A DNA stretch of 43,762 nucleotides, taken from contig JBKJML010000141.1 in NCBI GenBank assembly GCA_046596415.1, positions 1 through 43,762 of the forward strand, in the 5' to 3' direction. The first letter of the stretch is position 1. Each line of letters opens with the position of its first letter. The translations under genes were made by a program, and so were the position numbers. This stretch comes from Gaiellaceae bacterium. GTDB lineage: Bacteria > Actinomycetota > Thermoleophilia > Gaiellales > Gaiellaceae. Under the pieces are notes generated by a model. The model had not been told where the DNA came from. It saw only the letters and a list, made by a program, of their open reading frames with translations, and made no database searches. Positions 10,324-29,646 of the stretch are shown here, in pieces.

Positions 10324-11299
10324 GCCCGCCGAGTTCCGAGGAAGCTATTCCGTGGTCGTCACCCCGTTCACTGAGGACGGCCAGGCGATCGACGTCGAGT
10401 CGACCAAGCGCTTCCTCGACTGGCAGATCCAGAACGACGTGCCGGGCGTGATCCTCCTCGGGACGACGGGGGAGTTCCTGACCGTGACCGACGAGGAGCG
10501 GGCGCTGCTCGTCCAGACGGCCGTCGAGCACGTCGACGGACGGATGCACGTGCTCGTCGCCACGATGAATGCGTCGACGCCGGTCGCCGTCCGGTACAGC
10601 CGCGAGGCGGAGCGCCTCGGAGCGGACGGCCTGATGATCATCCCGCCGTACTACTACACCCCGACTGAGGACGAGATCTTCGGCTACTACCGCGCGATCG
10701 CGGAGGCCGTCTCGCTGCCGATCATGGTCTACAACAATCCGGTCACCTCGAACGTGGATATGTCCGCGAAGCTGGTCGGCAAGCTGACGCGCGCCTTCGA
10801 GAACGTCCGCTACATCAAGGAAGCGAGCATGGACGTCGCCCGTGTCTACGACATCGTCGAGGAGACCGACGGCGTGATGAACGTCTTCGCCGGCGAGCGG
10901 ATCGTCGAGTCGTTCCTGCTCGGCGCAGTCGGCTACGTCAACCCGTACGGCAACTACCTTCCCCGGGCCTCGACTCGGATCTGGGACTTCCTCGTCGCGG
11001 GGCGGGTCGAGGACGCGAAGCGGATCCAGCGCCTGATCACGAAACTCGACCACGTGATCGCCGAGGGGCATCCGACGTACGGGCATCAGTGCTACTCGAA
11101 GGCGCTCGCCGCGGCCGCCGGCTATCCGGTCGGCGACGTGCGACCGCCGCTCACGACCTTCGCCGAGCTTGGCGAGGAGGGCCGCTCGCGCGTCGCAGAG
11201 ATCACGGCCGTGATGCACGACCTCGACGGGCTGATGGACGAGCTCGAGGCCCGCCCCGCCGGCGCACGGTCGGCCGGCTCGGCGCTCTCCCCGGCCTGA
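10322..11299 (+). CDS. DHDPS/NAL-family lyase, second copy
   Basis: AAGGAG (10310-10315) sits upstream of ATG 10322. Motifs GVILLGTTGEFLTVTDEERALL and VYNNP. Confidence 0.9.
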   Translation: MPAEFRGSYSVVVTPFTEDGQAIDVESTKRFLDWQIQNDVPGVILLGTTGEFLTVTDEERALLVQTAVEHVDGRMHVLVATMNASTPVAVRYSREAERLGADGLMIIPPYYYTPTEDEIFGYYRAIAEAVSLPIMVYNNPVTSNVDMSAKLVGKLTRAFENVRYIKEASMDVARVYDIVEETDGVMNVFAGERIVESFLLGAVGYVNPYGNYLPRASTRIWDFLVAGRVEDAKRIQRLITKLDHVIAEGHPTYGHQCYSKALAAAAGYPVGDVRPPLTTFAELGEEGRSRVAEITAVMHDLDGLMDELEARPAGARSAGSALSPA

Positions 11300-11333
11300 C
11301 CCCGCCCTCCGTGGAGGTCACCGCACTCGGGGC

Positions 11334-11363
11334 TTGACTCTGCCTGCCGTGCAGGCGTAGGTT
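11334..11363 (+). promoter_or_regulatory. candidate promoter inside operon B, upstream of the SBP gene
   Basis: TTGACT (11334-11339), an 18-nt spacer, then TAGGTT (11358-11363). Confidence 0.4.
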
Positions 11364-11375
11364 GGCCGCAGTTGT

Positions 11376-11395
11376 ATGCGCACGACTGTGCGCAT
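11376..11395. promoter_or_regulatory. perfect palindromic operator-like site ATGCGCAC-N4-GTGCGCAT
   Basis: 8-bp perfect inverted repeat just downstream of the candidate -10. The 15-mer GTGCGCATCGCGAAC (11388-11402) recurs at 29147-29161. Confidence 0.4.
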
Positions 11396-11438
11396 CGCGA
11401 ACTTCGCGGTGCGACCACCCACACCGATTGGGGGCAGC

Positions 11439-12407
11439 ATGAGCAATTACGACCAGGGATCTCCGAACCCGGCCGCGGACCCGACCGACCTCCTCGCTGG
11501 AGGCACGAGCCGCCGCCGGCTCCTCCAGGTCGGGGGGCTCGGGCTCCTCGGCGCGTCGACGCTCGCCCTGGCCGGCTGCGGCGACGACAACAAGTCGAGC
11601 GCCGCCGGTGCCGCGACCACGACGACGGCCACCTCGACGTCCTCCGGCTCGATCCTCGACAAGTGGACACGCGAGAAGACGGCCAAGCTCGGCGTCGACC
11701 TCAGCTTCCCGCCGCTCCAGTTCAAGGACAAGAGCGGCAAGCCGACGGGGTACATGGTCGAGGTCACCGAGCTGATGATGAAGGAGCTCGGCGTCACCCC
11801 CGAGTATGTCGAGACGCCGTTCGCCCAGCTCTTCCCGGGCCTCTCGGCGGGCAAGTTCGACATGCTGGGGATCGCGGTCACGATCTTGCCTTCGCGCGCC
11901 CTCCGCGGCTCGTTCGCGGACGTGCCTGCCTTCTACGAGTCGAACGTGGTCGTCATCAAGAGCACCTCGACCGCGAAAAGCCTCGACGACTTGGCGACCG
12001 CGAAGTTCGCCGTGCTCCAGGGGAGCTCGCAGGCCGCAAGCGGCAAGTCGATCTTCCCGAAGGCGACCTTCAACGAGTTCGCCTCCGAGACGGACGCGGC
12101 GACCGAGGTCTCGGTCGGCCGTGCCGAAGCGGCAATCTTCAGCGAGTTCTCGACCTCCTCGGTGCTCGGCACGAACGCCGACCTGAAGGCGCTCGCCGTT
12201 CCGCCGCTCTTCGTGGACGCGAACAGCTACTTCATGAAGGAGGGCGACACGAAGCTCTGGCTCTGGGTCTCGAACTGGCTCCGCTACCAGGCCTCGCACA
12301 AGACGTTCGAGAGCCTCTGGGAGAAGTGGGTCGTCCCGAACACGTCGAAGTACAACCTCGAGACCGCCGTCGTCGGGATCAACGGCGACGCGACGCCGAT
12401 CAGCTGA
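11439..12407 (+). CDS. family-3 amino-acid substrate-binding lipoprotein with Tat-like signal
   Basis: ATG 11439. Twin-arginine motif SRRRLLQVGG plus lipobox LAGCG, then an SBP_bac_3 body. Confidence 0.88.
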   Translation: MSNYDQGSPNPAADPTDLLAGGTSRRRLLQVGGLGLLGASTLALAGCGDDNKSSAAGAATTTTATSTSSGSILDKWTREKTAKLGVDLSFPPLQFKDKSGKPTGYMVEVTELMMKELGVTPEYVETPFAQLFPGLSAGKFDMLGIAVTILPSRALRGSFADVPAFYESNVVVIKSTSTAKSLDDLATAKFAVLQGSSQAASGKSIFPKATFNEFASETDAATEVSVGRAEAAIFSEFSTSSVLGTNADLKALAVPPLFVDANSYFMKEGDTKLWLWVSNWLRYQASHKTFESLWEKWVVPNTSKYNLETAVVGINGDATPIS

Positions 12408-12456
12408 CCCCCGACCGCGTGGCCTTCCGGGGGCGAGCCCGGAGGGCCCCTTCTCA

Positions 12457-13134
12457 ATGATGACGACCGTGCTCGGATATCAGTTCGCCTGGGGCACCGT
12501 CGTGGACCGCTGGGACGTGTTCCTCCTGGGCGCGTGGCTGGACGTCTGGGTGACGGCGATCTCATTTGTGCTCGCCTGCGGGATCGGGATCGGGATCGCC
12601 GTGATGCGGATCTCGGGCGTCTTTGTCCTCCGCGCGCCCGCCTTCGTCTACGTGCAGCTGCTCCGAGGCGTGCCGCTGCTCGTCTTCCTCTACTGGGTCT
12701 ACTTCGGGGTCGCGATCGTCGTCGGGCTCAACTTCAGCCCGGTCCAGGCTGGGATCGTCGCCCTGACGCTGACCGGGTCGGCCTATACGGCCGAGATCTT
12801 CCGGGCCGGGCTCCAGGCGATCGACCGCGGCCAGGCGGAGGCCTCGCGGTCGCTCGGCCTCTCCCGGATCGGCACCTACCGCCATGTGCTGCTCCCGCAG
12901 ATGCTCCGGATCGTCGTCCCCCCGCTCGGGAACACGTTCATCGGCCTGCTCAAGGGCGCGACCCTGCTCTCGATCATCGCCGTCCACGACATGGTTCAGG
13001 TGGCGAACGACCTCAACATCAACTTCTTCACCCCGTTCGAGGCGTTCACCGCCGTCGCCGTCATTCTCGTCGCCCTGGTGGCCGTCTTTTCGGCCGCCGT
13101 CACCCTCCTCGAGCGGGTGCTCGCACTCCCGTGA
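12457..13134 (+). CDS. amino-acid ABC transporter permease
   Basis: GGAGGG sits upstream of ATG 12457. Multi-TM protein with the loop [23 protein letters not shown]. Confidence 0.9.
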
Positions 13135-13874
13135 CCGTCGGCTACACCTTCCGCTGGGAGCTCGTGCCGGAGTCGGCCGGAGCGCTCGCCCACGGGCTCA
13201 GGATCACCCTCGAGCTCTCGGCGCTCTCGTTTCTGCTCTCGCTCGTGATCGGGCTCGTCGTCGCGCTCTGCCGCCTCGCGCCCTCACGACTGCTTCGCGC
13301 CGTCGCCTACGTCTACACCCAGGTCTTCCGGGCGCTCTCGCTCTATGTCTACGTGCTCTTCCTGTACTTCGGGATCGCCGCCGTCTTCGGAATCAACCTC
13401 GGCACATTCACCGCCGGGGTCGTCGCGCTCACGCTTCTGAACAGTGCTTACATGGCCGAGATCTACCGGTCGGCGATCCAGTCGGTCGAGCCCGGGCAGC
13501 GAGAGGCGGCGCTCGCTGTCGGCCTCGGCCACACGCGCTCCTTCGCGAGCGTGGTCCTGCCCCAGGCGATCCGGGTTGCCGTGCCCGGGCTCGTCAACCA
13601 GGCCGTGGACATCATCAAGGACTCGTCGATCGTGGCGGTGATCGGCCTCTTCGACCTGATGGGGACGACAATCCAGCTCGTGAACAGCGAGCGGGCACCG
13701 TTCGAGCTCTACACCGTCACAGCGCTGACCTACATCGCGCTGATCCTGCTCGTCTCCGCCGCCGCCGCGCTCCTCGAGCGCCGGCTCGCACGCCATCTCG
13801 CGGGCGGCGGCGCTGGGCCGGGGCCGTTCGCGAAGCTGCGCGGCTACCGCTTCGGCGGCCAGGTGCCCGCGTGA
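13131..13874 (+). CDS. amino-acid ABC transporter permease (second subunit)
   Basis: GTG 13131 overlaps the upstream TGA (GTGA). Loop motif [23 protein letters not shown]. Confidence 0.9.
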
Positions 13875-14680
13875 ACGAGGAGCTCGAGGCGGGTGAGGAC
13901 GTCGTGGTTGCGGAAGGCATCCACAAGACGTTCAACCGCGGCCATCGCGGGCGCGAGGTGCCCGTGCTGCGCGGGGTCGACCTGCGCGTCGAGAAGGGCG
14001 AGGTGCTGGTCGTGATCGGACCGAGCGGCTCCGGCAAGAGCACGCTCCTGCGTTGCCTCAACTTCATCGCACCGCCTGACGCGGGCAGCGTCACCTTCCT
14101 GGGCCGGAGGCTCACGGGCGACGTGCCACGCCGTAGGCCGGTCGAGCGGCTGCGCTACGAGCGGGAGCTCCGGTTCTTCCGGACGCACATCGGGATGGTC
14201 TTCCAGCACTTCAACCTCTTCCCGCACATGACGGCCGCCGAGAACGTCGCTCTCGCGCCGACGCGGGCGCTCGGGCTGTCGCGGAAGGACGCGCGGACGC
14301 GGAGCCTCGAGGAGCTCGCCCGCGTCGGGATGGCGGACAAGGTCGACGCGTATCCGAGCCAGCTCTCCGGCGGCCAGAAGCAGCGGGTTGCGATCGCGCG
14401 GGCGCTCGCGATGCGGCCGCAGCTCATGCTCTTCGACGAGGCGACCTCCGCGCTCGACCCGGAGCTGATCGGTGGCGTGCTCGAGGAGATGAAGCGGCTC
14501 GCCGAGTCGGGGATGACGATGATCGTCGTCACGCACGAGATGGGCTTCGCCCGCGAGGTCGGCGACCGCGTCATCTTCATGGACGAGGGCCGGATCGTCG
14601 AGGAGGGCGGAGCCCGCGAGTTGATCGACAGTCCGCAGAACGAGCGGACTCAGGCGTTCCTGAGCGCGATCCTGAACTGA
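13871..14680 (+). CDS. amino-acid ABC transporter ATP-binding protein
   Basis: GTG 13871 overlaps the upstream TGA. Motifs [30 protein letters not shown] and [10 protein letters not shown]. Confidence 0.92.
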
Positions 14681-14726
14681 TGCGCTGGGTGCATTATGTG
14701 GTTGACCACGACCGGAGGAGGCAGTC

Positions 14727-16139
14727 ATCGCCGTAGAGCACACGCCCGTCGACGAAGCGGCTGTCGAGGAGATCGACCGCCGCTTCGTCTTCCACCCCTT
14801 TACCCAGCTCGATCAGCACGAGCGAACCGGCACGCCCGGCATGATCGTGGCGGGCTCGGGCGTGCGTCTGACCGACATCCACGGCCGCTCCTACATCGAC
14901 GGGATGGCGGGTCTCTGGTGCGTGAACGTCGGCTACGGCCGGCCGGAGATCGGCGAGACACTTCGCGTCCACGCCGAGCGCCTCGGCTACTACCACTCGT
15001 TCTCCTCGATGAGCACCGACACGCCGGCGCTCCTCGCCGAGCGCCTGATCGCGATGGCGCCTGAGGGGATGTCGAAGGTCTTCTACGGCTGTACGGGCTC
15101 GGACGCGAACGACACCCAGGTCAAGATCGCCTGGTACTACAACAACGTCCTCGGCCGGCCGAAGAAGAAGAAGATCATCGCCCGGGATCGTGGCTACCAC
15201 GGCGTCACGGTGATGGCCGGGAGCCTCACCGGGCTCCCTGGGGTGCACGCCAACTTCGACCTGCCGCTGCCGATGGTCCGGCATACGACGGCGCCGCACC
15301 GGCTCTGGGAGGCCGCGTCGGGGATGAGCGACGAGGACTTCGCGCAGAAGCTGGCCGACGACCTCGAGCAGCTGATCCTCGCCGAGGGACCGGAGACGAT
15401 CGCGGCCTTCATCGCCGAGCCGATCCAGGGTGCCGGCGGCGTGCTCGTCCCGCCCGCCGGCTACTGGGAGAAGATCCAGGCGGTCCTGCGGCGCCACGAC
15501 GTGCTCCTGATCGCCGACGAGGTGATCACCGGCTTCGGGCGGCTCGGCGAGTGGTTCGGCAGCGACGTCTTCGGGATCGAGCCCGACCTGATCACGGTCG
15601 CGAAGGGCCTCACCTCCGGGTACGTCCCCCTCTCCGCGTGCATCGTCTCGGAGCAGGTCTGGCGCGTGCTCGTGGACGCCGGGCCCGAGGCCGGCGTCTT
15701 CGGCCACGGTTACACCTACAGCGCCCACCCGCTCGCCGCGGCGGTGGCGATGACGAACCTCGACCTGATCGAGAACGAAGGTCTCATCGCGCAGGCGGCG
15801 AGCCGCGGCGCGCTCCTGCACGAGCGGCTCCGGGAGGAGTTCGCGGATCACCCGCTCGTCGGCGAGGTGCGCGGCCAGGCCCTGATCGCGGCGCTCGAGT
15901 TCGTCCAGGAGCGCTCGCCGATGACGGCGTTCAACCCGGGACTGAAGGTGGCCGCCCGGATCACGCGCCGGTGCCTCGACCTCGGCCTGATCACGCGCGC
16001 GCTGCCCGCGTCCGACGCGATCTCCTTTGCGCCTCCCTTCGTCGTCTCCGAGGAGGAGCTCGAGGAGCTGGTGCAGACGACGCGCCGCGCCGTCGACGAG
16101 GTCTATGCCGAGCTGCGGAGCGAGGAGGCGATCGGGTGA
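14727..16139 (+). CDS. class-III (omega-amine:pyruvate, SpuC-like) PLP aminotransferase
   Basis: Motifs FHPFTQL and DGMAGLWCVNVGYGR. The conserved N-terminus extends upstream of the first ATG (14841). GGAGGAGG (14714-14721) lies 5 nt before ATC 14727. The minimal ORF is 14841-16139. Confidence 0.88.
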   Translation: MAVEHTPVDEAAVEEIDRRFVFHPFTQLDQHERTGTPGMIVAGSGVRLTDIHGRSYIDGMAGLWCVNVGYGRPEIGETLRVHAERLGYYHSFSSMSTDTPALLAERLIAMAPEGMSKVFYGCTGSDANDTQVKIAWYYNNVLGRPKKKKIIARDRGYHGVTVMAGSLTGLPGVHANFDLPLPMVRHTTAPHRLWEAASGMSDEDFAQKLADDLEQLILAEGPETIAAFIAEPIQGAGGVLVPPAGYWEKIQAVLRRHDVLLIADEVITGFGRLGEWFGSDVFGIEPDLITVAKGLTSGYVPLSACIVSEQVWRVLVDAGPEAGVFGHGYTYSAHPLAAAVAMTNLDLIENEGLIAQAASRGALLHERLREEFADHPLVGEVRGQALIAALEFVQERSPMTAFNPGLKVAARITRRCLDLGLITRALPASDAISFAPPFVVSEEELEELVQTTRRAVDEVYAELRSEEAIG

Positions 16140-17257
16140 ATCGAATCGGCCTGATCGTCAACCCGATCGCGGGCATGGGTGGCCGCGTCGGCCTCAAGGG
16201 CACGGACGGCGTGGCGGTGCTCGAGCGTGCGCTCGAGTTGGGTGCCACTCCGGTCGCGGCGGGGCGCACCGACCGGGCGCTCGCCCGGCTCGAGCACTGC
16301 CGCGGCGAGCTTCAACTCGTCGCGGCCGCCCGCGAGATGGGTGCCGACCTCGCCGAAGCTCACGCGTTCGAGACCGAGGTGCTGCCGCGCTCCGGGCGTC
16401 GGGGCGCGTCGAGCGCGGACGACACGCGTGCTGCCGCGGCAGAGCTGGCTCGGCGCGATGTCGACCTGATCCTCTTCGCCGGCGGCGACGGGACGACGCG
16501 CGACATCCAAAGCGTCGTCGGCGACCGACTGCCGATCCTTGGGATCCCGACGGGGGTGAAGATGCACTCCGCCGTCTTCGCGACGAGCCCGGAGCACGCA
16601 GGTGACGTCGCCGCCTCGTTCCTCTCCGACGGCGCCCGCGCCGCACTGCGCGAAGTCGAGGTCGTCGACGTGGACGAGGACGGCGTCCGGGACGGCCGGA
16701 TCGAGACGCGCCTCTACGGCGCCGTGTGCGTTCCCGCCGACCGGCTGCGGATGCAGGCGGCGAAATCCCGCTCGGGGCCCTCCGACGAGGCCGCGCTCGC
16801 CGCGGTCTGCCGCGCGTTCGCCGAGGCGATGGACCCGCGTCGGATCTACGTGCTCGGCCCGGGGACGACCACGAAGCGTATCGCGGAGCAACTGGAGGTC
16901 CCGAAGACGCTGCTCGGCGTCGACGCCGTCCGCGGCGGCCGCCTCGTCGGCGCCGACCTCGGCGAGCGCGAGCTGCTCGACCTCCTCGAGGGGCAGGCGG
17001 CGACGCTCCTCCTCGGCGTCGTCGGCGGTCAGGGCGCCCTCTTCGGCCGCGGCAACCAGCAGCTGAGCCCCGCGGTTCTGCGCCGGATCGGCGTCGCGAA
17101 CGTCGAGGTGATCGCCGGCCTCGGGAAGTTGCTCGCCCTCGATCCGCCATGGCTGCGCGTCGACACGGGCGACCCCGACCTCGACGCCGAGCTCGAGGGC
17201 TACCGGCGCGTCCACGTGGCTCCGCGCCGCACCGTCGTCTACAAGGTGGCGGCATGA
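16136..17257 (+). CDS. ATP-NAD kinase / diacylglycerol kinase-fold protein (AcoX-like, function unknown)
   Basis: GTG 16136 overlaps the upstream TGA. Motifs IGLIVNPIAGMGG and FAGGDGTTRD. Confidence 0.75.
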   Translation: MNRIGLIVNPIAGMGGRVGLKGTDGVAVLERALELGATPVAAGRTDRALARLEHCRGELQLVAAAREMGADLAEAHAFETEVLPRSGRRGASSADDTRAAAAELARRDVDLILFAGGDGTTRDIQSVVGDRLPILGIPTGVKMHSAVFATSPEHAGDVAASFLSDGARAALREVEVVDVDEDGVRDGRIETRLYGAVCVPADRLRMQAAKSRSGPSDEAALAAVCRAFAEAMDPRRIYVLGPGTTTKRIAEQLEVPKTLLGVDAVRGGRLVGADLGERELLDLLEGQAATLLLGVVGGQGALFGRGNQQLSPAVLRRIGVANVEVIAGLGKLLALDPPWLRVDTGDPDLDAELEGYRRVHVAPRRTVVYKVAA

Positions 17258-18645
17258 CCGCGCATCCGTACATGCCGAACTCGACCCCCGAGCTCCACCG
17301 GGAGCTCCTGGACGCCGTCGGCGTCCCCGACGTCGAGTCGCTCTTCGTCCAGATCCCGGCTGGGCACCGCCTCCAGGGCGGCCTCCAGCTGCCGCCCGCG
17401 CTGACCTCCGAGGCGACGCTGCGGCGCCACTTGCTCGACCTGCTCGCGCGGAACGAAACCTGTGAGCGCAACCTCAGCTTCCTCGGCGGGGGGATCTGGC
17501 AGCACCACGTGCCCGCAGTCGTCGACGAGATCGCGCGCCGGAGCGAGTTCCTGACGCCGGTCTGGGGGACGCCGTCGTCCGACCACGGCCGCAACCAGGC
17601 CTGGTTCGAGTTTGCGAGCCAGCTGGCGGAGCTGATCGGGATGGATTTCGTCGGCCTTCCCGTCTACAGCTGGGGCTGCGCGGAGGGCCACGCGATCCGC
17701 ATGGCCGCGCGCCTCACGGGGCGGGCGCACGTGCTCGTTCCGAGCACGATCAGCCCAGAGCGGCTGGCCGTGATCCGGACGTACTGCGGCTCGCCCGAGC
17801 TGCTCGGCCACATCGAGGTCGAGCTCGTCGGCTTCGACCCCGAGACGGGCGGCCTCGACCTGGATGACCTGCGCGCGAAGCTCTCACCGCGTACGGCGGC
17901 GGTGCTGATCGAGAACCCCGGCTATCTCGGGACGTTCGAGGCGAACGCGGCGGAGATCGCGGTGCTCGCACGCGCGAACGGCAGCGAGACGATTGTCGGC
18001 GTCGACCCGATCTCCCTCGGCATCGTCGCTCCGCCCTCCGAGTACGGCGCTGACATCGTCGTCGGCTCCGTCCAGCCGCTCGGCGTCCACATGTCGTGCG
18101 GCGGCGGCGCGGGCGGGTTCATCGCCTCGCGTGATGAGGAGCGCTACGCCCACGAGTATCCGACGCTCAACCTGAGCATCGGCCGGACCGTGAACGGCGA
18201 GTACGGCTTCGGGATGGCGCTCTTCGAGCAGACCTCGTACGGCCAGCGCGAGGAGGGGAACGACTGGACCGGCAACTCGGTCTACCTCCACGCCGTCGCA
18301 AGCGCCGCCTACATGGCGCTGATGGGGCCGGAGGGGTTCGCGGAAGTCGGCCGGCTGATCGTCGGGCGGAGCCACTACGCGGCCGGACGGCTCGCCGAGC
18401 TGGGGGGCGTCCGCATCCGCTTTCCGCGAGGCTTCTTCAAGGAGTTCGTCGTCGGCTTCGACGACACCGGCAAGACCGTCGCGGAGGTGAACCGCGCGCT
18501 GCGCGAGCGCGGGATCTTCGGTGGCAAGGACCTCTCGCGCGACTTTCCGGAGCTCGGCCAGAGCGCTCTCTACTGCGTCACCGAGGTGCACGCGCGCGAG
18601 GACATCGAGAGGCTCGTCGACGCGGTTGCGGAGGTGGTCGCGTGA
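17254..18645 (+). CDS. gcvPA: glycine-dehydrogenase (decarboxylating) subunit-1-like protein
   Basis: ATG 17254 overlaps the upstream TGA. N-terminus HPYMPNSTPELHRELLDAVGV, 463 aa, overall GcvPA-like layout. Confidence 0.85.
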   Translation: MTAHPYMPNSTPELHRELLDAVGVPDVESLFVQIPAGHRLQGGLQLPPALTSEATLRRHLLDLLARNETCERNLSFLGGGIWQHHVPAVVDEIARRSEFLTPVWGTPSSDHGRNQAWFEFASQLAELIGMDFVGLPVYSWGCAEGHAIRMAARLTGRAHVLVPSTISPERLAVIRTYCGSPELLGHIEVELVGFDPETGGLDLDDLRAKLSPRTAAVLIENPGYLGTFEANAAEIAVLARANGSETIVGVDPISLGIVAPPSEYGADIVVGSVQPLGVHMSCGGGAGGFIASRDEERYAHEYPTLNLSIGRTVNGEYGFGMALFEQTSYGQREEGNDWTGNSVYLHAVASAAYMALMGPEGFAEVGRLIVGRSHYAAGRLAELGGVRIRFPRGFFKEFVVGFDDTGKTVAEVNRALRERGIFGGKDLSRDFPELGQSALYCVTEVHAREDIERLVDAVAEVVA

Positions 18646-20222
18646 GGCGGTATCACGCAGCTGTCTGGGACGAGCCGCTCGTGATGGAGCTGGGGCGGCC
18701 CGGCCGCCGAGGTGTCGTCTTCGACGATGTCGGGCCGGAGGTGCGCGAGGCGGTCGGCGATCCGGTCGAGCTCGTGCCGGAGGGCCTGCGCCGCAGTGTC
18801 CGGCCGGAGCTTCCCGAGCTCTCCGAGCCGGAGGTGCTGCGCCACTACCTCCATCTCTCTCAAGAGACGCTCGGAATGATGGGCGTCAGCCTCTTCGGCA
18901 CCTGCACGATGAAGTACAACCCCCGCCTCGCGTGGGAGCTCGTCGCTCGACCCGAGATCGCGGAGCTGCACCCCGACCAGGACAACGAGACGCTCCAGGG
19001 GGTCCTCGAGCTCGTCCACGGGCTCGACCTGATCCTCCGCGGCCTCTCCGGGATGGATCAGTTTGTCTTCCAGGCGGGCGGCGGCGCGCACGCGGCCTAC
19101 ACACACACGGTCGTCACGCGCGCCTACCACGCCTCGCGCGGAGAGCTCGCCCAGCGTGACGAGATCGTGACGACGATCCAGGCGCACCCGTGCAACGCGG
19201 CGACCGCCGCGGCCGCCGGGTTCAAGGTCGTGACGCTCCCGCTCGAGGAGAACGGCTACCCGTCGCTCGATGCACTCAAGGCGGCGGTCTCGGAGCGGAC
19301 GGCTGCGCTGATGGTCGGAAACCCCGACGACATGGGGATCTACAACCCCGAGATCGACAAGTGGGTCGAGATCGTCCACGACGCGGGCGGCCTCTGCTTC
19401 TACGACCACGCGAACTTCAACGGCGTGATGGGGAAGCTGAAGGCGCGCGACCTCGGCTTCGATGCGTGCATGTACATGCTCCACAAGACCTTCGGTGCGC
19501 CAAAGGCGGGCGGCGGCCCGGCGGTCGGCGCCTACGGATGCACCGACGAGCTCGCCCGTTTCGTTCCAGCGCCCGTCGTCGTCGAGGACGGCGACCGCTA
19601 CCGGCTCGACCACGACCGGCCTGACAGTGTCGGCAAGGTGCGCGAGTTCTTCGGCAACGTGCCGCAGCTCGTCTACGCATACACATGGAGCCGCGCGATG
19701 GGGGCCGCGGGGATCGACGAGGCTTCGGACATCTCGGTGCTGCTGAACAACTACATGGAGAAGCGCCTGCTCGCGATTCGGGGGGTGACGAAGTCGCAGC
19801 CGCACCTGACCGCCCCGCGCCTCGAGATGACGCGCTACAGCCTCGAGCAGGTCGAGCAGGACACCGGGATCACGGTCTTCGACGTCCAGAACCGGCTGGT
19901 CGACTTCGGGATCGACGCATTCTGGCTCAGCCACGAGCCGTGGATCGTCCCGCAGCCGTTCACGCCCGAGGCGGGCGAGATGTGGTCGAAGGAGGACATC
20001 GACGAGTGGATCGATGTCCTCGGCCACGTGATCGAGGAGGCCTACACGGATCCGGAGCTCGTCCGGACGGCGCCGCACAACCAGGCGATCGCAAAGCTCG
20101 ACTCGACCGACCTGAACGACCCGGCGAACTGGGCGACGACGTGGCGTGCCTACCGGCGCAAGCGTGCGGCGGCCGACGGTGACGGCGACCCGACAGAGGC
20201 TCGCGCGAGGGTCGGTCCGTAG
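18642..20222 (+). CDS. gcvPB: glycine-dehydrogenase (decarboxylating) subunit-2-like PLP protein
   Basis: GTG 18642 overlaps the upstream TGA. Motifs LPELSEPEVLRHY and GTCTMKYNP, with the PLP-lysine motif LHKTF. Confidence 0.85.
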   Translation: MRRYHAAVWDEPLVMELGRPGRRGVVFDDVGPEVREAVGDPVELVPEGLRRSVRPELPELSEPEVLRHYLHLSQETLGMMGVSLFGTCTMKYNPRLAWELVARPEIAELHPDQDNETLQGVLELVHGLDLILRGLSGMDQFVFQAGGGAHAAYTHTVVTRAYHASRGELAQRDEIVTTIQAHPCNAATAAAAGFKVVTLPLEENGYPSLDALKAAVSERTAALMVGNPDDMGIYNPEIDKWVEIVHDAGGLCFYDHANFNGVMGKLKARDLGFDACMYMLHKTFGAPKAGGGPAVGAYGCTDELARFVPAPVVVEDGDRYRLDHDRPDSVGKVREFFGNVPQLVYAYTWSRAMGAAGIDEASDISVLLNNYMEKRLLAIRGVTKSQPHLTAPRLEMTRYSLEQVEQDTGITVFDVQNRLVDFGIDAFWLSHEPWIVPQPFTPEAGEMWSKEDIDEWIDVLGHVIEEAYTDPELVRTAPHNQAIAKLDSTDLNDPANWATTWRAYRRKRAAADGDGDPTEARARVGP

Positions 20223-20224
20223 CG

Positions 20225-20977
20225 GTGACCCCTACAGGACTCCTCGCAGGGCGGGTCGCGCTCGTCACGGGCGGCGGCAGGGGCCTCGGCGCCGCGATCG
20301 CCCGCGAGTACGCGGCGGCCGGCGCCGTCGGCGTGGTCGCCGACCTCGAGCGGGGCGCCGCCCCGGACGGCTGGATCGCGCTCGAGGCCGACGTCAGGGC
20401 CGAGGCCGATGTCGCGGCCGCGGTCGCGGCGGCCGCGGAGCGCTTCGGCCGGCTCGACGTCGTCGTCGCGAACGCGGGCGTCGTTCCGCCCTGGAGCGAC
20501 ACGAGCGAGCTCGACCTCGACGAGCTCGACGCGGTCTTCGCGGTCAACGTGCGCGGGGTCGCGGCCACGCTCAAGCACGGTGTCGCGGCGCTGAGGGAGC
20601 ACGGTGGCTCGATCGTCGTCATGGCCTCGCTGAACGCTTGGCGCGCGCACCGGAGCCAGCCGGTCTACACGGCGTCGAAGCACGCGGTGCTCGGGCTCCT
20701 GCGTACGGCCGCGCTCGACGCAGGCCGCTACGGGATCCGCGTCAACGGCCTGGGGCCTGGGCCGATCCTGACGGACGCGCTGCGCGAGCGCCTGGAGCGG
20801 CGGGCGGCGGCCGGCGGGCCCTCAGTCGAGGAGGCACTCGCCGAGGCTGCGGCCGGGACGGCGCTCGGCCGGATGGCGACGGAGGAGGACGTGGCGCGCG
20901 TCGCGCTCTTCCTCGCGAGCGACCTCTCCTCCGGGATCACGGGCGCGCTCCTGCCCGTGGACGGGGGTGTCGCCTGA
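20225..20977 (+). CDS. short-chain dehydrogenase/reductase
   Basis: Motifs VTGGGRGLGAAIA, NAGV and YTASKHAV. Confidence 0.88.
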   Translation: MTPTGLLAGRVALVTGGGRGLGAAIAREYAAAGAVGVVADLERGAAPDGWIALEADVRAEADVAAAVAAAAERFGRLDVVVANAGVVPPWSDTSELDLDELDAVFAVNVRGVAATLKHGVAALREHGGSIVVMASLNAWRAHRSQPVYTASKHAVLGLLRTAALDAGRYGIRVNGLGPGPILTDALRERLERRAAAGGPSVEEALAEAAAGTALGRMATEEDVARVALFLASDLSSGITGALLPVDGGVA

Positions 20978-21321
20978 TGCTGATCCGCGCCGGGGAGCGG
21001 CCGGAGGTCGAGGCGCGCGACGACCACCTCGTGATGCGCGCGCTCCTGCGCGGTGAGGACGGCGCCGGGCTCAGCCTCACGGAGGTGCGGCTCTCGGGCG
21101 CGCACCGGCCGCTTCGGACGTTGCGCTCGCCGAGGGTCTACTACGTGGTCGAGGGCTCCGCCGCCTTCAGGATCGGGGCGGCGCCGTCGTTCGTCGCGGC
21201 CCCCGGCGATGTGGTCGTGGTCCCGCGAGGCGAGGTCTACTCGCTCGAGGGCGAGTTCACCTACCTGGTCCTGAACGCGCCGCCCTATGCCGACGGCGAC
21301 GACCTCTACGAGGAGGACTGA
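20977..21321 (+). CDS. small cupin-domain protein
   Basis: ATG 20977 overlaps the upstream TGA by 1 nt. 114 aa with a beta-barrel-type sequence (YYVVEGSAAF...GDVVVVPRGEVYSLEG). Confidence 0.7.
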   Translation: MLIRAGERPEVEARDDHLVMRALLRGEDGAGLSLTEVRLSGAHRPLRTLRSPRVYYVVEGSAAFRIGAAPSFVAAPGDVVVVPRGEVYSLEGEFTYLVLNAPPYADGDDLYEED

Positions 21322-22083
21322 GTGCCGCTCGCGAACAGGACCGTCCTCGTCACGGGCGCTTCGAAGGGGATCGGCGCCGCGATTGCCGGCGCGCTCGGCG
21401 AGCGGGGCGCGGCGGTGGTCGCGCACTACGGGAGCGACGAGGCCGGCGCCCGGGAGGCGACGGCGGCGATCCCGGACGAGCGGAAGCTCCTCGTGCAGGC
21501 CGACCTTGCCGACCCGGAGGCGCCTGCGCGGCTCTGGGCCGAGGCGCTGGCGTGGCGCGGCGGCGTCGACGTCCTGGTCAACAACGCGGCGATCATGCCC
21601 GAGAGCCCGCTCGACGGTACCGACGAGGTGTGGGCGAGCGCCTGGGAGACCGCGCTACGGGTTAACGTGCTCGCCGCCGCTGACCTGATGCGCGAGGCCG
21701 TCCGGCACTTCCGCGAGCGCGGCGGCGGGGTCTTGATCACCCTCTCGAGTTGGGCCGCCCAGCGCGGCGCCGGCAACTCGAACCTCGTCGCCTACGCGGC
21801 GTCGAAGGCCGCGATCAAGGCAATGGCGCAGACGATCGCCCGCAACCACGCAACCGACGGCGTCCTCTCGTACATCGTCGCGCCGGGTGTCGTCCGAACC
21901 CGTATGTCGGAGGAAGCGGCTGTGAGTCGCGGAGGCGAGGAGGCGATCACCGCGACTCTCGCCATGGGCGAGTGGGTGCCGCCCGAGGATGTCGCCCGCC
22001 TCGTCGCCTTCCTCGCCACGGGCCGCGTCCGCCATCTGACCGGCGCCACCCTCGACGTCAACGGCGCGAGCTACATCCGATGA
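21322..22083 (+). CDS. short-chain dehydrogenase/reductase
   Basis: AGGAGGA sits upstream of GTG 21322. Motifs VTGASKGIGAAIA, NNAA and YAASKAAI. Confidence 0.88.
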   Translation: MPLANRTVLVTGASKGIGAAIAGALGERGAAVVAHYGSDEAGAREATAAIPDERKLLVQADLADPEAPARLWAEALAWRGGVDVLVNNAAIMPESPLDGTDEVWASAWETALRVNVLAAADLMREAVRHFRERGGGVLITLSSWAAQRGAGNSNLVAYAASKAAIKAMAQTIARNHATDGVLSYIVAPGVVRTRMSEEAAVSRGGEEAITATLAMGEWVPPEDVARLVAFLATGRVRHLTGATLDVNGASYIR

Positions 22084-23087
22084 AGTTCGGCGTCTGGTAC
22101 GACGTGCGCAACCCGCCGCGGTGGCACCGGCCCTACGCGGAGCTCTACCAGGAGACGCTCGACCAGATCGTCTGGGCCGAGTCGGCCGGCTTCGAGTCGG
22201 TACAGGTCTCGGAGCACCACGTGACCGATGAGGGCTACCTGCCCTCGGTCTTCCCGCTGCTCGCCGCGATCGCTGCCCGGACGAGCACGATCCGCCTCGG
22301 GTCGGCGGTGCTCCTCGCCCCGCTCCACCATCCGATCCGGTTCGCCGAGGACGCCGCGTTCGTCGACCAGCTGAGCGGCGGCCGGCTCGAGCTCGGGCTC
22401 GGGCTCGGCTACCGGCGCGACGAGTTCCGCGCGCTCGGCGTCCCACGGCCGGAACGGGGAACGAGGACGGAGGAGCTGATCGAGATCGCGCGCCGCGCCT
22501 GGACGGGCGAGCCCTTCACGCACCACGGCAGGCACTGGGACCTCGAGGACGTCGTCGTCACGCCGCCGCCGTTCCAGCCGGGCGGCCCGCCGCTCTGGCT
22601 CGGCGGCGCGACCGCGAAGGCCGCGGAGCGCGCGGGCCGGCTCGGCTGCCATTTCATGCCGGACGCCTACATGCCGGTCGAGCACTACGCCACCTACCGC
22701 GAGGCGCTCGCGGCGGCCGGCCACGACCCCGCCGACTTCCAGGTGGCGATCAACCCGACGATCTACGTCACCGAGGACCCCGAGCGCGGCTGGGACGAGG
22801 TGAGCGAGCATCTCCTCTACCAGTACAACCGCTACCGCGAGTGGTTCGCGGCGGGCGGAGCCGAGCCGGCCGCGACGGCGACGAGCGCCGACGAGCTCCC
22901 GCGCGACCGGTACCTGATCGGGACGCCCGCGCAGGTGATCGCCGGGATCGAGGCCCTGCGCGAGCGTCGCCCGTTCGACCGGCTCTTCTTCTGGGCGCGC
23001 CCCCCGGGCCTCCGCCTCGAGCAGAGCACGCGTTCACTCGAGCTCTTCGCCGAGCAGGTGCTGCCGCACTTCGGGTCGGGCGAGTGA
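22080..23087 (+). CDS. LLM-class (luciferase-like) flavin/F420-dependent oxidoreductase
   Basis: ATG 22080 overlaps the upstream TGA. Motifs GFESVQVSEHH and GRLELGLGLGY. Confidence 0.85.
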   Translation: MKFGVWYDVRNPPRWHRPYAELYQETLDQIVWAESAGFESVQVSEHHVTDEGYLPSVFPLLAAIAARTSTIRLGSAVLLAPLHHPIRFAEDAAFVDQLSGGRLELGLGLGYRRDEFRALGVPRPERGTRTEELIEIARRAWTGEPFTHHGRHWDLEDVVVTPPPFQPGGPPLWLGGATAKAAERAGRLGCHFMPDAYMPVEHYATYREALAAAGHDPADFQVAINPTIYVTEDPERGWDEVSEHLLYQYNRYREWFAAGGAEPAATATSADELPRDRYLIGTPAQVIAGIEALRERRPFDRLFFWARPPGLRLEQSTRSLELFAEQVLPHFGSGE

Positions 23088-23089: not shown

Positions 23090-24196
23090 TCAGACGACCT
23101 GGAGCTCGCGCGTGAACGTGTTCAGCGCCTCGCAGCCCGTGGCGGTGACGACGACTGTGTCCTCGACGTGGATCGGGGTGTTGCGGGCGATGAACGCGCC
23201 CGGATCGATCGTGAACACCATCCCCTCCTCGACCGGATCGGTGTTGCCGAGCTGGAGGAGCGGCGGCTCGTGCGCCTCGCCGAGGCCGACGCCGTGGCCG
23301 ACCTTCCAGATCTGCTGGTAGCCGGCCTCCGCCATCGCCGCCGCGCAGGCCTGGTGGATCGACTCGGCGGCCACGCCGGGGCGGACCGCGGCGACCGCGG
23401 CGTCGTAGGCGTGCAGCGTCGCCTCGTAGAGGCGCCGCGCCTCCGCCGTCGGCTCGCCGAGGAAGACGTTCCGGGCCGTGTCGGCGCGGTAGCCGCCGTG
23501 CGAGCCGGGAAAGAGGTCGACGTCGACGATCTCGCCCGGCTCGAAGCGCCGGTCGGTGAGGTGATGGAAGGCGCCGACGATCGAGAGCTCTTCCGAGCCC
23601 GCCTCGACCATCGCGCGGATGATCTCGCTGCCGGCCTGCGCCACGGTGACTCCCGGCCGGAGCACCTCGACCGCGCGCCGGTAGCCCGCGTCGTGCGCAG
23701 AGGCCGCGATCCGGAGTTGCCCGAGCTCGTACGCGTCCTTGACGGCCCGGAGCCGGTCGAAGACGGGGCTCGCGCGCCGGAGCCGCAGGCCGGGCGCGGC
23801 GCCGCGGAGGAAATCGGCGTCCGCGAACCAGAGGGAATCCTCGGCGCCGACGTCCGCGTCCCCGAGGCCGGCTGCCGCGGCGGCCGATCTCACCGCGCTC
23901 GTCGGATCCTGTCCGTCGACGTACGTGAAGACCTCCCGCACCGGGCTGCGCTCGAGATCGAAGATCCGCGCGTGCATCTCGCTCACGACCATCGCCGGCT
24001 CGCCGTCGACCGGCACGAGCACCGCGGAGAGCCAGAGCGGCCAGCCGCCGGGGTGCGCCGACTCGCCGGTCAGCCAGCGGAAGTTCGGCCCGGCCGTGAC
24101 GTACAGGCCCGCGAGCCCGGACTCGGCTGCGAGCCGCCGCGCTCGGTCGAGCCGCTTCGCGTGATCCGCTCCCTCCACCTCGCCGATCCTAGTCAC
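23090..24196 (-). CDS. M24-family metallopeptidase (Xaa-Pro dipeptidase / creatinase-fold hydrolase)
   Basis: GTG start at 24196. N-terminal creatinase-like domain plus the pita-bread motifs DVDLFPGSHGGYRADTARN, HGVGLGEAHEPP and VFTIDPG. Confidence 0.85.
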   Translation of the reverse strand: MTRIGEVEGADHAKRLDRARRLAAESGLAGLYVTAGPNFRWLTGESAHPGGWPLWLSAVLVPVDGEPAMVVSEMHARIFDLERSPVREVFTYVDGQDPTSAVRSAAAAAGLGDADVGAEDSLWFADADFLRGAAPGLRLRRASPVFDRLRAVKDAYELGQLRIAASAHDAGYRRAVEVLRPGVTVAQAGSEIIRAMVEAGSEELSIVGAFHHLTDRRFEPGEIVDVDLFPGSHGGYRADTARNVFLGEPTAEARRLYEATLHAYDAAVAAVRPGVAAESIHQACAAAMAEAGYQQIWKVGHGVGLGEAHEPPLLQLGNTDPVEEGMVFTIDPGAFIARNTPIHVEDTVVVTATGCEALNTFTRELQVV

Positions 24197-24230: not shown

Positions 24231-24605
24231 ATGCCCTGCGCTTCACGTGACGAACTGCCCCTGCAGCAGATCACCCCGACCTACAGCACCCGGATGGCCA
24301 AGTGGGGCAGCATGACGGTCGGGATCGAGGCGGCCCCCGCCGGGTTGGACGGCGCCGCGTCGCTCGGCGATCTCCCCGGCGGCCGCTGCCAGGCCCATCA
24401 CTGGGGCTACATGCTCTCCGGGAAGATCGTCGTCGACTACGGTGACCGCCAGGAGACGATCGTCGGCGGCCAGGCGTACTACGTCGAGCCCGGCCACAAG
24501 ATCTCGTTCATCGAGGACAGCGAGGCGGTCGAGTTCACCCCGACCGAGGAGCTCAACCGGACGCTCGACGCGGTGCGGGCGAGCGTGGAGCGCGATCGGG
24601 GCTGA
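24231..24605 (+). CDS. cupin-like small protein
   Basis: AGGAGA sits upstream of ATG 24231. Motif HHWGYMLSGKIVVDYGD...YYVEPGH. Confidence 0.6.
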   Translation: MPCASRDELPLQQITPTYSTRMAKWGSMTVGIEAAPAGLDGAASLGDLPGGRCQAHHWGYMLSGKIVVDYGDRQETIVGGQAYYVEPGHKISFIEDSEAVEFTPTEELNRTLDAVRASVERDRG

Positions 24606-25716
24606 CGTCGTCGACGCCGTCGTCGTCGGCGCCGGCGTGATCGGCCTCGCGGCCGCGCGCGAGCTGCGCGGACGCGGAGCGTCGGTGGTCGTCGTCGAGC
24701 GCACCGGGATCGGCTCCGGGCAGTCGGGGGTTCAGCCAGGCGGCGTCCGCCGCCAGTGGGGGACGGCGATCGGCTGTCGCCTCGCCGGCGAGGCGTTCGC
24801 GTTCTGGCAGGAGGCCGAGACGCGGCTCGAGAGCCCTGTCGCGCTCGACTTTCGCGAGTGCGGCTACCTCTTCGTCGCCCACTCGGAGCAGACCCTCGCT
24901 CGTTTGCGCGCGAACGTCGCAGTGCAGAACGCGGAGGGCGTGCCGTCGAGGATCGTCGATCCCGAGGAGGCGGCCCGGCTTGTTCCCGGCCTCGGCACGG
25001 AGACGCTCGTCGGTGCCGCCTGGTGCGGGGAGGACGGCTACTTCGACCGGCCGCAGTCCGTCGTCGAGGCGTTTGCCCGCGGTGCGGACGTGCGCCTCGG
25101 GGAGGTGACCGAGCTGCGTCCGGTCGCGAGCGGCTGGGAGGTCGTTTGGAGCTCGGGTGTCGTGGCCGCGGCCACCGTCGTCCTCGCCGCCGGGGCGGGC
25201 TCCGTCGCGCTCGCGGCCCCGCACGGGGTGCGCCTCCCGATCGAGCTCGAGGAGCGCCATCTCTTCCTGAGCGCACCGGTTGCGGAGCGCCTCGTCGAGC
25301 CGCTCGTCGTCTCGGCCGAGCGCAGCTTCGCGGCGAAGCACCTCGCCGACGGGCGCGTCCTCGCGAGCGACCTCGGCGCCAAGGGTGACGCGGCGGAGGG
25401 TGCGCCGCGCTGGCGAGCGCGCATCCGCGAGGGGATCCGCGAGCTGCTGCCCGTGCTCGAGTACGTCGACTTCCCGATCCTCGCGAGCGGTGCGTACGAC
25501 GTCACACCGGACCGCCAGCCGATCCTCGGCCCGCTGCCGGCGGTGGACGGCCTGCACGTGGCGGCCGGGTTCAGCGGGCACGGCTTCATGATCGCCCCGG
25601 CGGTCGCGCGGATCCTCGCCGACGCGGTCGAGGGGCGGCGCGACCCGGTGCTCGACGTGCTCGATCTCGCGCGCTTCGAGGCGGGTCGGCTCGTGCCCGA
25701 GCCTCAGGTCGTCTGA
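24595..25716 (+). CDS. DAO-family FAD-dependent oxidoreductase (sarcosine-oxidase-beta-like)
   Basis: Motifs DAVVVGAGVIGLAAAREL, GSGQSG and GFSGHGFM. No canonical start lies near the Rossmann fold. ATC 24595 is tentative; the only in-frame ATG (24442) would overlap the cupin gene by 164 nt. Confidence 0.8.
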   Translation: MGADVVDAVVVGAGVIGLAAARELRGRGASVVVVERTGIGSGQSGVQPGGVRRQWGTAIGCRLAGEAFAFWQEAETRLESPVALDFRECGYLFVAHSEQTLARLRANVAVQNAEGVPSRIVDPEEAARLVPGLGTETLVGAAWCGEDGYFDRPQSVVEAFARGADVRLGEVTELRPVASGWEVVWSSGVVAAATVVLAAGAGSVALAAPHGVRLPIELEERHLFLSAPVAERLVEPLVVSAERSFAAKHLADGRVLASDLGAKGDAAEGAPRWRARIREGIRELLPVLEYVDFPILASGAYDVTPDRQPILGPLPAVDGLHVAAGFSGHGFMIAPAVARILADAVEGRRDPVLDVLDLARFEAGRLVPEPQVV

Positions 25717-26099: not shown

Positions 26100-26106
26100 G
26101 AGCGTC

Positions 26107-26116
26107 AGTTTATGCT
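26107..26116. promoter_or_regulatory. overlapping divergent -10 boxes for two leaderless genes
   Basis: Plus strand: TATGCT (26111-26116), 6 nt, then GTG 26123. Minus strand: TAAACT (26107-26112 as its reverse complement), 7 nt, then GTG 26099. Confidence 0.35.
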
Positions 26117-26122
26117 CGCCCG

Positions 26123-29064: not shown

Positions 29065-29134
29065 GATGTCTCCTTTTCGCTGGGCCGGTCCGGCCTGGGG
29101 CGAGTATCTCGTCCCGCCCAGCACGAGGCAAGCA

Positions 29135-29642: not shown

Positions 29643-29646
29643 GCGA

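Follow-up and report, generated by a model that had tools for sequence, protein, structure and literature searches.

The fold of the glycine cleavage P-protein (EC 1.4.4.2) is not known to serve more than a single reaction. Kinases paired with enzymes that depend on pyridoxal 5'-phosphate (PLP) are known from several routes, among them the (S)-1-amino-2-propanol kinase of the aminoacetone utilization microcompartment, the aminoacetone/1-amino-2-propanol route of Mycobacterium, human ETNPPL and PHYKPL, and L-threonine kinase with the CobD decarboxylase. The gene for AcoX, a protein whose function was still called unknown in 2022, opens an operon that specifies a cleavage enzyme dependent on a cofactor (PMC10107126). 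Here we analyze a stretch of DNA of 43,762 nucleotides from a Gaiellaceae bacterium (contig JBKJML010000141.1 of assembly GCA_046596415.1; referred to as the window) in which the gene for a kinase-fold protein, X, directly precedes the genes for PA and PB, homologs of the two halves of a P-protein. Judged by their sequences, PA and PB belong to a distinct, ancient, and widespread subfamily of the GDC-P fold in which the canonical motifs of the active site and of the part that faces the H-protein have been lost.

PA and PB compared with canonical P-proteins

PA (17254 to 18645, plus strand) is a GcvPA-like homolog of the N-terminal half of the P-protein (Pfam GDC-P, 155.7 bits; NCBIfam GcvPA), and PB (18642 to 20222, plus strand) is a GcvPB-like homolog of the C-terminal half, which carries the PLP lysine (NCBIfam GcvPB). 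In the Protein Data Bank (PDB), PA matches 1wyt_A (1.6e-59), and the best match of PB is 1wyt_B (2.8e-76). PB contains LFGTCTMKYNPRLA and LHKTFGAPKAGGGPAVG and retains the PLP-lysine motif (LHKTFGAPK) and the CTMK loop (GTCTMKYNP); the original prediction, made from the letters of the window, had recognized the P-protein halves by TCTMKYNP and HKTF, and both the motifs and the NCBIfam models agree with that assignment. It had also described the residues after the PLP lysine as noncanonical, and indeed PHGGGGPG is changed to PKAGGGPA in the PB of the window and GSCTMK to GTCTMK. In PA, YTPYQPEISQG is replaced by VWGTPSSDHGRNQ and TREQHIRRxKATSNICT by EQTSYGQREEGNDWTGNS.

These four motifs, two in PB and two in PA, are preserved in P-proteins of the PDB and in loci linked to gcvT or gcvH (T/H-linked loci), and they are altered throughout two clades, A and B, except that the PB of clade B keeps the His of PHGGGGPG (as PHGCGGPA). 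The PA motifs YTPYQPE(I/V)SQG and TREQHIRRxKATSNICT are replaced in both clades. The canonical PB group, made up of T/H-linked loci, Thermus 1WYT, and about 40 representatives, has PLGSCTMKYNPK as its first motif and NLHKTFSTPHGGGGPGAGP in the PLP-lysine region. Clade A, to which both PA and PB of the window belong together with those of other Actinomycetota and of Proteobacteria, has LFGTCTMKYNPR and MLHKTFGAPK.GGGPAVGAYGC at the same places in PB, and clade B, with members in Heimdall-/Promethearchaeota, Desulfobacterales, Bacillota, Thermomicrobiales, Anaerolineae, Brockarchaeota, and Acidobacteria-like genomes, has GQGTCTMKYSPKIN and FNLHKTFS.PHGCGGP. When a PB column was counted as conserved if it was at least 85% conserved among 30 canonical PB sequences, 30 of the 100 columns conserved in canonical proteins proved to be systematically replaced in clade A and/or clade B, and 12 of these 30 are invariant among the canonical proteins. 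Human residue numbers were assigned to PA through an alignment with 6I33 (offset, +43), by which the replaced PA motifs map to human Y161/Y164 and Q366/H371/I372/R373/K376; in the PA of the window, R373 has become Q and K376 has become E. In the human P-protein, Y161/Y164 are classed as active site, and Q366/H371/I372/R373/K376 are assigned to a flexible loop, the “H-interface,” that was modeled to dock the H-protein (PMC7259800).

In a neighbor-joining distance tree of PB, built without bootstrap support, clades A and B together make up a single group on a long branch that lies outside the 30 canonical sequences, with archaeal canonical PBs that are linked to X (loci L052 and L073) as the sister group. 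The phylogeny that the original prediction had proposed thus sets PB apart from the canonical P-proteins, in a long-branch clade and not in a tight grouping with them. The annotation pipeline PGAP nevertheless labels the plasmid-borne relatives (L083, L084, L087, L088, L089, and L098) [quoted passage not shown] and assigns them the Gene Ontology (GO) term “glycine catabolic process.” The application of these names and of this term to genes without T/H neighbors is probably a systematic over-annotation. If the subfamily acts otherwise, metabolic reconstructions that score glycine cleavage from such genes are wrong, and the genomes affected may include those of Asgard archaea and soil Actinomycetota.

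The window carries none of the other components of a glycine cleavage system. A Pfam scan of its open reading frames with a coding-type G+C content at third codon positions (GC3), with the short frames at 1 to 273 and 29969 to 30220 left out, found no GCV_T, GCV_H, or Lpd-type enzyme in the 43.7 kb, and tblastn searches of the window with Pfam-verified GcvT and GcvH from related loci and with Lpd from L073 returned noise only, so that the earlier claim of a module without any T, H, or L gene in this stretch is upheld. Likewise, no glycine riboswitch was found in the window by Rfam. A hidden H-protein domain at the C terminus of PB was considered and rejected, as the weak GcvH tblastn matches there (19847 to 20014) are out of frame and not significant. 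The only folate-linked gene of the window (35837 to 37675, minus strand) encodes a homocysteine S-methyltransferase domain fused to an MTHFR domain and is unrelated to T-protein.

X and its association with PA and PB

X (16136 to 17257, plus strand) is a 373-amino-acid protein of the NAD-kinase/diacylglycerol-kinase fold. It matches the N-terminal NAD_kinase domain of Pfam (PF01513, 75.8 bits against a threshold of 25.5) and the C-terminal one (NAD_kinase_C, PF20143, 32.2 against 23.7), with a borderline match to DAGK_cat (PF00781, 25.9 against 23.6), and its GGDGT motif lies within FAGGDGTTRD; the GGDGT protein that had been noticed between an aminotransferase and PA is therefore borne out by motif and domains alike. 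Against the NCBIfam equivalog model for NAD kinase (NF002984), X scores 19.3 bits (cut-off, 326), with only 39 residues aligned, and it has no PDB match by sequence. Databases name its homologs “predicted polyphosphate/ATP-dependent NAD kinase” (JGI) and, in plasmid records annotated by PGAP, “NAD(+)/NADH kinase” or “ATP-NAD kinase family protein.” Eight strong motifs run through the family across bacteria and archaea (NPIAGMGGxVGLKGTDG, GGDGTaRD, LGxPTGVKMhS, EVMDxDE, GPGTT, LLGVD, GRGNQQxS, and vDTGd), a pattern that is, as far as motifs go, that of an active enzyme. The idea that X might be a thiol carrier was rejected, because a conserved cysteine is absent from the family.

In the window, X is joined to its neighbors by three 4-nucleotide start-stop overlaps, GTGA at 16136 to 16139 (aminotransferase/X), ATGA at 17254 to 17257 (X/PA), and GTGA at 18642 to 18645 (PA/PB), all exactly where they had been placed originally. 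To see how widely this association extends, one genome per species was scanned with an X alignment, and 80 loci were found through X. Clade A, with the order X-PA-PB, accounts for 32 of them and clade B, with the order PA-PB-X, for 18; two more are cut by contig ends, seven, from archaea or Dehalococcoidia, include gcvT and/or gcvH, and in the remaining 21, mostly from Bathyarchaeia, X stands alone or beside a gene for a DegT-type aminotransferase or a glycerate-kinase-like protein. No gcvT or gcvH lies within 7 to 12 kb in any clade A or clade B locus, whereas T/H genes do adjoin the canonical split systems that the survey also covered. The gene neighborhood survey suggested by the original prediction thus finds X-PA-PB or PA-PB-X without gcvT or gcvH recurring in about 60 loci, including seven plasmids, and in many phyla, with representatives in Thermoleophilia, Rhodococcus, Pseudomonas, Alphaproteobacteria, Chloroflexota, Bacillota, Desulfobacterales, Brockarchaeota, and Heimdallarchaeota. 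Trees of X and of PB are congruent, and in most lineages PA and PB apparently coevolve and are cotranscribed with X.

Seven of the 12 plasmid records that have an X homolog carry X-PA-PB, which is an accessory location for the module. The carriers are Rhodococcus jostii RHA1 (pRHL1), Rhodococcus qingshengii, Sphingomonas psychrotolerans, Paracoccus aminophilus (pAMI4), Gemmobacter fulvus, Antarctobacter heliothermus, and Roseicitreum antarcticum. The function of the module is directly testable, since cultured and genetically workable hosts carry it: R. jostii RHA1 and P. aminophilus on the plasmids just named, S. psychrotolerans, and several Pseudomonas. In pRHL1, X lies at 439788 to 440894, and PA and PB follow it immediately. 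Regulator genes of the TetR, LysR, or AmiC-ANTAR type adjoin the module in such hosts.

A second search was anchored on PB, using a clade B representative, and six contigs were looked up. Three of these have PA-PB-X followed by a short-chain dehydrogenase/reductase (SDR) gene (two from Anaerolineae and one from Brockarchaeota), and the other three, Acidobacteria-like members of clade B, have no X within 8 kb. X was present in every clade A locus examined. Because of the three Acidobacteria-like pairs, the pairing of X with PA and PB is the rule but not absolute. According to the original prediction, a P-protein-like enzyme had been recruited to amine or amino-acid catabolism in obligatory pairing with X. 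The P-like enzyme without T, H, or L and its catabolic neighbors stand, but “obligatory” is too strong a word, as half of the PB-anchored loci lack X and X is also found alone, beside other PLP enzymes, and in glycine cleavage clusters.

Other settings of X are varied. On a plasmid of Peptoclostridium acidaminophilum (L085, 8992 to 11068), the X homolog overlaps the start of the gene for a 328-amino-acid PLP enzyme of the HisC/CobD family (hisC, 230 bits; CobD, 144 bits; both below cut-off), and the substrates of this subfamily's known members are phosphorylated amino compounds. The X homologs that stand alone in Aeromonas and Pseudoalteromonas add nothing to the picture. A plasmid of the haloarchaeon Natronosalvus halobius (L086, 3867 to 15348) has an X homolog (50% identity) without PA or PB, and the company it keeps is much as in the window: an ornithine cyclodeaminase-like protein, a class-III aminotransferase, a luciferase-like (LLM) oxidoreductase of the TIGR03619 type, SDRs, EthD, and a DHDPS-family protein.

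Proposed function and alternatives

It is very probable, in our judgment, that PA and PB form a P-like enzyme that works outside the glycine cleavage system on a new substrate. They most likely act on an amino compound other than glycine, and the module is housed in operons for the catabolism of amino or carboxylate compounds that the cell imports. As to mechanism, we tentatively propose that X phosphorylates the compound and that PA/PB then act on the ester. X would transfer phosphate from ATP (or polyphosphate) to a hydroxyl group of its substrate, a hydroxylated amino compound; this could be an amino acid with a beta- or gamma-hydroxy group or else a vicinal amino alcohol that stems from hydroxyproline, hydroxyectoine, or hydroxylysine. 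The anionic ester would be bound by PA/PB through PLP at the Lys of HKTF and would engage the new basic residues, namely, the Arg/Lys in DHGR and the Lys in PKxGGG, and PA/PB would either decarboxylate the ester or eliminate phosphate (beta-elimination). The resulting amine, aldehyde, or ketone would pass to the omega-type aminotransferase, the two SDRs, an aldehyde dehydrogenase, and acyl-CoA ligases or transferases. Should this be so, X and PA/PB might make up a previously unrecognized ATP-dependent PLP enzyme system for a hydroxylated or anionic amino compound, extending from Heimdallarchaeota to Proteobacteria, although as a whole we regard this picture as possible rather than probable.

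That X would be a kinase is suggested by its GGDGT motif, its NAD_kinase and DAGK_cat domains, and the strong motifs found family-wide. A phosphoester mechanism is hinted at by the new conserved basic residues in the remodeled loops, by the coupling of X to a HisC/CobD-type enzyme in Peptoclostridium and its position beside a class-III aminotransferase and PA/PB, and by the known logic of kinase plus PLP lyase for vicinal amino alcohols. The hint that the substrate is anionic comes from a Desulfobacterales operon (L045, 4689 to 15231), which ends with genes for a CuyB-like cysteate racemase (230 bits; cut-off, 190) and a Glu/Asp-type binding protein, and from genes of the TauE sulfite-exporter family near X-less PA-PB pairs in L094 (667 to 1572) and L095 (10881 to 11786). 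A sulfatase gene lies near another X-less pair in L091 (212 to 1597). The cysteinolate pathway uses CuyC, HpsN, CuyB, and CuyA and not a P-like enzyme (PMC12814064).

Several observations weigh on the other side. PA and PB both pass the equivalog models of NCBIfam, PA with 423.5 bits on GcvPA (cut-off, 364) and PB with 505.7 bits on GcvPB (cut-off, 441), and the argument from the H-interface rests on a published docking model and not on a solved complex (PMC7259800). The AlphaFold model of X is of moderate confidence (pLDDT, 72.6), and its best Foldseek match, DgkB, is weak (TM score, 0.25 to 0.32); this comparison of predicted structures supports a kinase fold for X but not a substrate specificity. 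The aminotransferase of the window looks like an ordinary omega-transaminase and not a phospholyase, three of the six PB-anchored loci lack a nearby X, and the phosphoester intermediate is purely our inference. The main objection is that X also lies within or beside genuine gcv clusters (gcvH, glyA, gcvT, PA, PB, lpd) in some Bathyarchaeia, a Desulfurococcales archaeon, and a Dehalococcoidia genome. These loci are L073 (6051 to 14601), in which gcvH-glyA is followed by X, then gcvT, then PA-PB-lpd, together with L052 (5593 to 11110), L049, L050, L056, and L059. There, no phosphoester is needed, and X may have a different role in support of P-proteins.

The scores just given, the retained PLP lysine and CTMK loop, and the names that PGAP gives to the relatives would all suit an ordinary split P-protein, that is, an extra, inducible one that decarboxylates glycine onto the housekeeping lipoyl-H-protein, with T, H, and L encoded elsewhere and with glycine coming from SoxB/ThiO-like oxidases; the three DAO/SoxB-like oxidases of the window could indeed free glycine from N-substituted glycines. 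We nevertheless find this explanation improbable, given the separate long-branch clade with 30 of 100 conserved PB columns replaced, the replacement in PA of YTPYQ and of the modeled H-interface loop (R373 to Q and K376 to E), the roughly 60 loci that lack adjacent T/H genes, unlike the canonical split systems of the survey, the carriage on plasmids, and the lack of a glycine riboswitch in the window. Equally low are the chances, in our estimate, that glycine or another small amino acid is kept as the substrate and that only the acceptor has changed, the carbanion going to a nonlipoyl electrophile (an acyl-CoA, as in an alpha-oxoamine-synthase-like reaction, or another thiol carrier) that X supplies or activates. 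The remodeled H-protein-facing loop beside an intact PLP site is what such an enzyme would show, and a gene for a PRK08162-type acyl-CoA synthetase (980 bits) or for CoA-transferases adjoins the trio in Pseudomonas, Rhodococcus, Gemmobacter, and Anaerolineae; many loci, the window included, lack these ligases and transferases, however, the loss of the active-site Tyr motif suggests a change of substrate and not of the acceptor alone, X has no conserved cysteine with which to act as a carrier, and the operons, with their importers, look catabolic.

More serious, though still rather doubtful, is a model in line with the original prediction, in which PA/PB are a plain PLP decarboxylase of an unphosphorylated substrate, the amine is converted by the omega-transaminase to an aldehyde, and X is an accessory, either an NAD(H) kinase serving the SDR and LLM enzymes or a regulator. 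The aminotransferase does match omega-transaminase families that act on primary amines, genes for an aldehyde dehydrogenase and SDRs are near, X homologs bear NAD(+)/NADH kinase or polyphosphate/ATP-dependent NAD kinase names, and some PA-PB pairs lack an adjacent X. Yet X reaches only 19 bits on an NAD kinase model with a cut-off of 326, the motifs of its family extend well past the shared GGDGT, its tree is congruent with that of PB, the translational coupling by 4-nucleotide overlaps is conserved, and its presence beside unrelated PLP enzymes speaks for a link at the level of the substrate rather than for cofactor supply. The occurrence of X in genuine gcv clusters (L073, L052, and L049/L050/L056/L059), together with the sister relationship of the archaeal, canonical, X-linked PBs to the T/H-less clades and the matched stoichiometry that translational coupling suggests, would agree with a role for X, inherited from archaeal glycine cleavage systems, as a partner of P-type enzymes in general that does no catalysis or serves their maintenance, be it as a third subunit, as a factor for assembly or PLP loading, or as an ATP-dependent reactivase. 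We think this unlikely, since X is absent from most canonical glycine cleavage systems and is also encountered by itself or with unrelated PLP enzymes, and since its many conserved acidic and glycine-rich motifs look like those of an active enzyme.

The operon, its neighborhood, and known systems

The window has a G+C content of about 70%, its coding frames have very high GC3, and the closest homologs of its proteins come from metagenome-assembled genomes of Gaiellaceae and Thermoleophilia. As originally described, the module lies in a 13-gene operon with an amino-acid importer, two SDRs, a cupin, and an LLM oxidoreductase, which we place on the plus strand at 10322 to 23087, with intergenic distances of −4 to 76 nucleotides. 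The order is DHDPS-like, SBP_bac_3, two permeases, ATPase, aminotransferase, X, PA, PB, SDR, cupin, SDR, and LLM. By Pfam, the first gene encodes a DHDPS-family lyase (10322 to 11299), and the next four encode a polar-amino-acid ATP-binding cassette (ABC) importer, consisting of the SBP_bac_3 binding protein (11376 to 12407), two permeases (12457 to 13134 and 13131 to 13874), and the ATPase (13871 to 14680). The class-III (omega-type) aminotransferase (14727 to 16139; Aminotran_3, 290.8 bits; top NCBIfam matches, PRK07482 and PRK06105) leads into X, PA, and PB, which are followed by SDR 1 (20225 to 20977; adh_short_C2, 177.3 bits), a small cupin-like protein (20977 to 21321; weak Cupin_2 and Cupin_1 matches below the gathering score), SDR 2 (21322 to 22083; adh_short_C2, 147.8 bits), and finally the LLM oxidoreductase (22080 to 23087; Bac_luciferase, 234.6 bits), which is of the F420 type TIGR03619 (177.1 bits; cut-off, 166.9). 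Divergent from the operon lies the gene for a DAO-family FAD amine oxidoreductase, SoxB/ThiO-like (9112 to 10323, minus strand; Pfam DAO, 201 bits; NCBIfam soxB and ThiO matches below cut-off). The predicted starts of this gene and of the DHDPS-like gene overlap (CATG, 10321 to 10324) and leave no intergenic promoter space; the corresponding pair in L003 is 6 nucleotides apart.

The aminotransferase gene probably begins at a noncanonical ATC (14727). Between the upstream in-frame stop (14703 to 14705) and the conserved N terminus there is no ATG, GTG, or TTG, and this ATC, 5 nucleotides 3' of the strong Shine-Dalgarno sequence GGAGGAGG, is the only plausible start. The closest ortholog (L003, 8520 to 8640) has ATA at the equivalent codon, behind GAAAGGAGA, and ATA in the place of ATC suggests that the predicted AUH start codon is conserved.

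The partners that recur around the module are SDRs or Zn-dependent alcohol dehydrogenases (one or two), a class-III aminotransferase, a PRK08162-type acyl-CoA synthetase or CoA-transferases, an LLM oxidoreductase, DHDPS-family and DAO-family enzymes, M24 or ArgE/DapE hydrolases, racemases (of the Pro_racemase family, or CuyB-like above the NCBIfam cut-off), and transporters that import amino acids or carboxylates (polar-amino-acid ABC, APC permease, TAXI-TRAP, and TTT). SDR genes flank PA, PB, and X in Actinomycetota, Proteobacteria, Anaerolineae, Brockarchaeota, Desulfobacterales, and Heimdallarchaeota, and orthologs of SDR 2 itself are present in L005, L007, L008, L046, L057, and L098; the cupin-like protein is conserved in L005 (72% identity). 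LLM genes are neighbors of the trio in Acidovorax, Paucibacter, Pseudomonas, and Sphingomonas. Aminotransferase orthologs lie directly upstream of X in loci from Thermoleophilia and other Actinomycetota, and DHDPS orthologs (63 to 84% identity) accompany X-PA-PB in Gaiellales, Hyphomicrobiales, other Alphaproteobacteria, and Roseicitreum, with a DAO gene adjoining the DHDPS gene in L003, L007, L008, L010, L039, L057, and L098. For a clue to the substrate, NCBIfam models were run against the binding proteins, the aldehyde dehydrogenase, the DAO and DHDPS proteins, the SDRs, and the acyl-CoA ligases, and all matches were generic or below cut-off. Ectoine degradation as such was rejected, as the M24 protein of the window (23090 to 24196, minus strand) scores 79 bits on DoeA (cut-off, 575).

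Further genes for the handling of amino compounds surround the operon (23090 to 24196, minus strand; 24231 to 27342; 38593 to 39621), including those for the M24/creatinase-like hydrolase, a second cupin, a third DAO protein, a RidA-family protein, a second LLM oxidoreductase, and an M55 D-aminopeptidase. The segment from 29000 to 34650 has a lower GC3 (0.67 to 0.86) and carries a SnoaL-like gene, a gene for a 1,050-amino-acid adenylate-cyclase + AAA_16 protein (31344 to 34496), and, at its end, a tRNA gene (34579 to 34652, minus strand); this segment may have been acquired separately or may have a regulatory role.

Upstream of the operon lies a second catabolic set (334 to 9102), with genes for an ABC importer, a Pyr_redox_2/Fer2_BFD/SO_alpha_A3 protein, DAO and DHDPS proteins, a two-domain VOC protein, a Fer2_4 protein, and an aldehyde dehydrogenase. 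In L001 and L002, a set of this type directly precedes the aminotransferase-X-PA-PB-SDR block; in the window, the DAO/DHDPS/ABC block is inserted between the two. The set resembles a three-component D-hydroxyproline dehydrogenase pathway with its DHDPS-family deaminase and aldehyde dehydrogenase. With bacterial hydroxyproline-type clusters it shares Pyr_redox_2/Fer2_BFD, DAO, Fer2_4, DHDPS, Aldedh, and the ABC importer, but the window has no epimerase gene and has in addition the two-domain VOC gene and the aminotransferase-X-PA-PB-SDR block; the Anaerolineae version of the module does have a Pro_racemase-family gene. To our knowledge, the hydroxyproline pathway needs neither a kinase nor a P-like enzyme.

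The module was not found described in the literature on AcoX, COG3199, glycine decarboxylase-like clusters, ATP-NAD kinase together with glycine dehydrogenase, P-protein structure, cysteate racemase, and amino-alcohol phospholyases. The families of the P-protein and of X are already known. If the proposal is true, PA and PB would represent a second, non-lipoyl-dependent activity of the glycine cleavage P-protein fold, and X would provide the first function for the AcoX-like family. The module is a tractable handle on putative relatives of AcoX.

The nearest described counterpart of PA and PB is the split P-protein GcvPA/GcvPB of Thermus thermophilus (1WYT), which the pair of the window resembles in fold, in its two-subunit architecture, and in HKTF and CTMK; the pair differs in belonging to a separate clade, in its replaced PB and PA motifs, and in having no adjacent gcvT or gcvH and, usually, an adjacent X instead. 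X is likened to AcoX and the “ATP-NAD kinase family” proteins by the names of its homologs and by its N-terminal domain of the NAD_kinase/DAGK type with GGDGT. No acoABC (E1/E2) genes were found in the window or in the surveyed loci, and whereas the partner of AcoX is a thiamine-diphosphate-dependent E1, that of X is a PLP enzyme. The module resembles the known pairs of kinase and PLP enzyme, for the X gene is likewise coupled to genes for PLP enzymes amid dehydrogenases and aldehyde-processing enzymes. The known kinases, however, have the APH or GHMP fold and X has the NAD-kinase/DAGK fold, and the known lyases and decarboxylases have the fold of class-III or class-I/II aminotransferases, whereas PA and PB have that of the P-protein.

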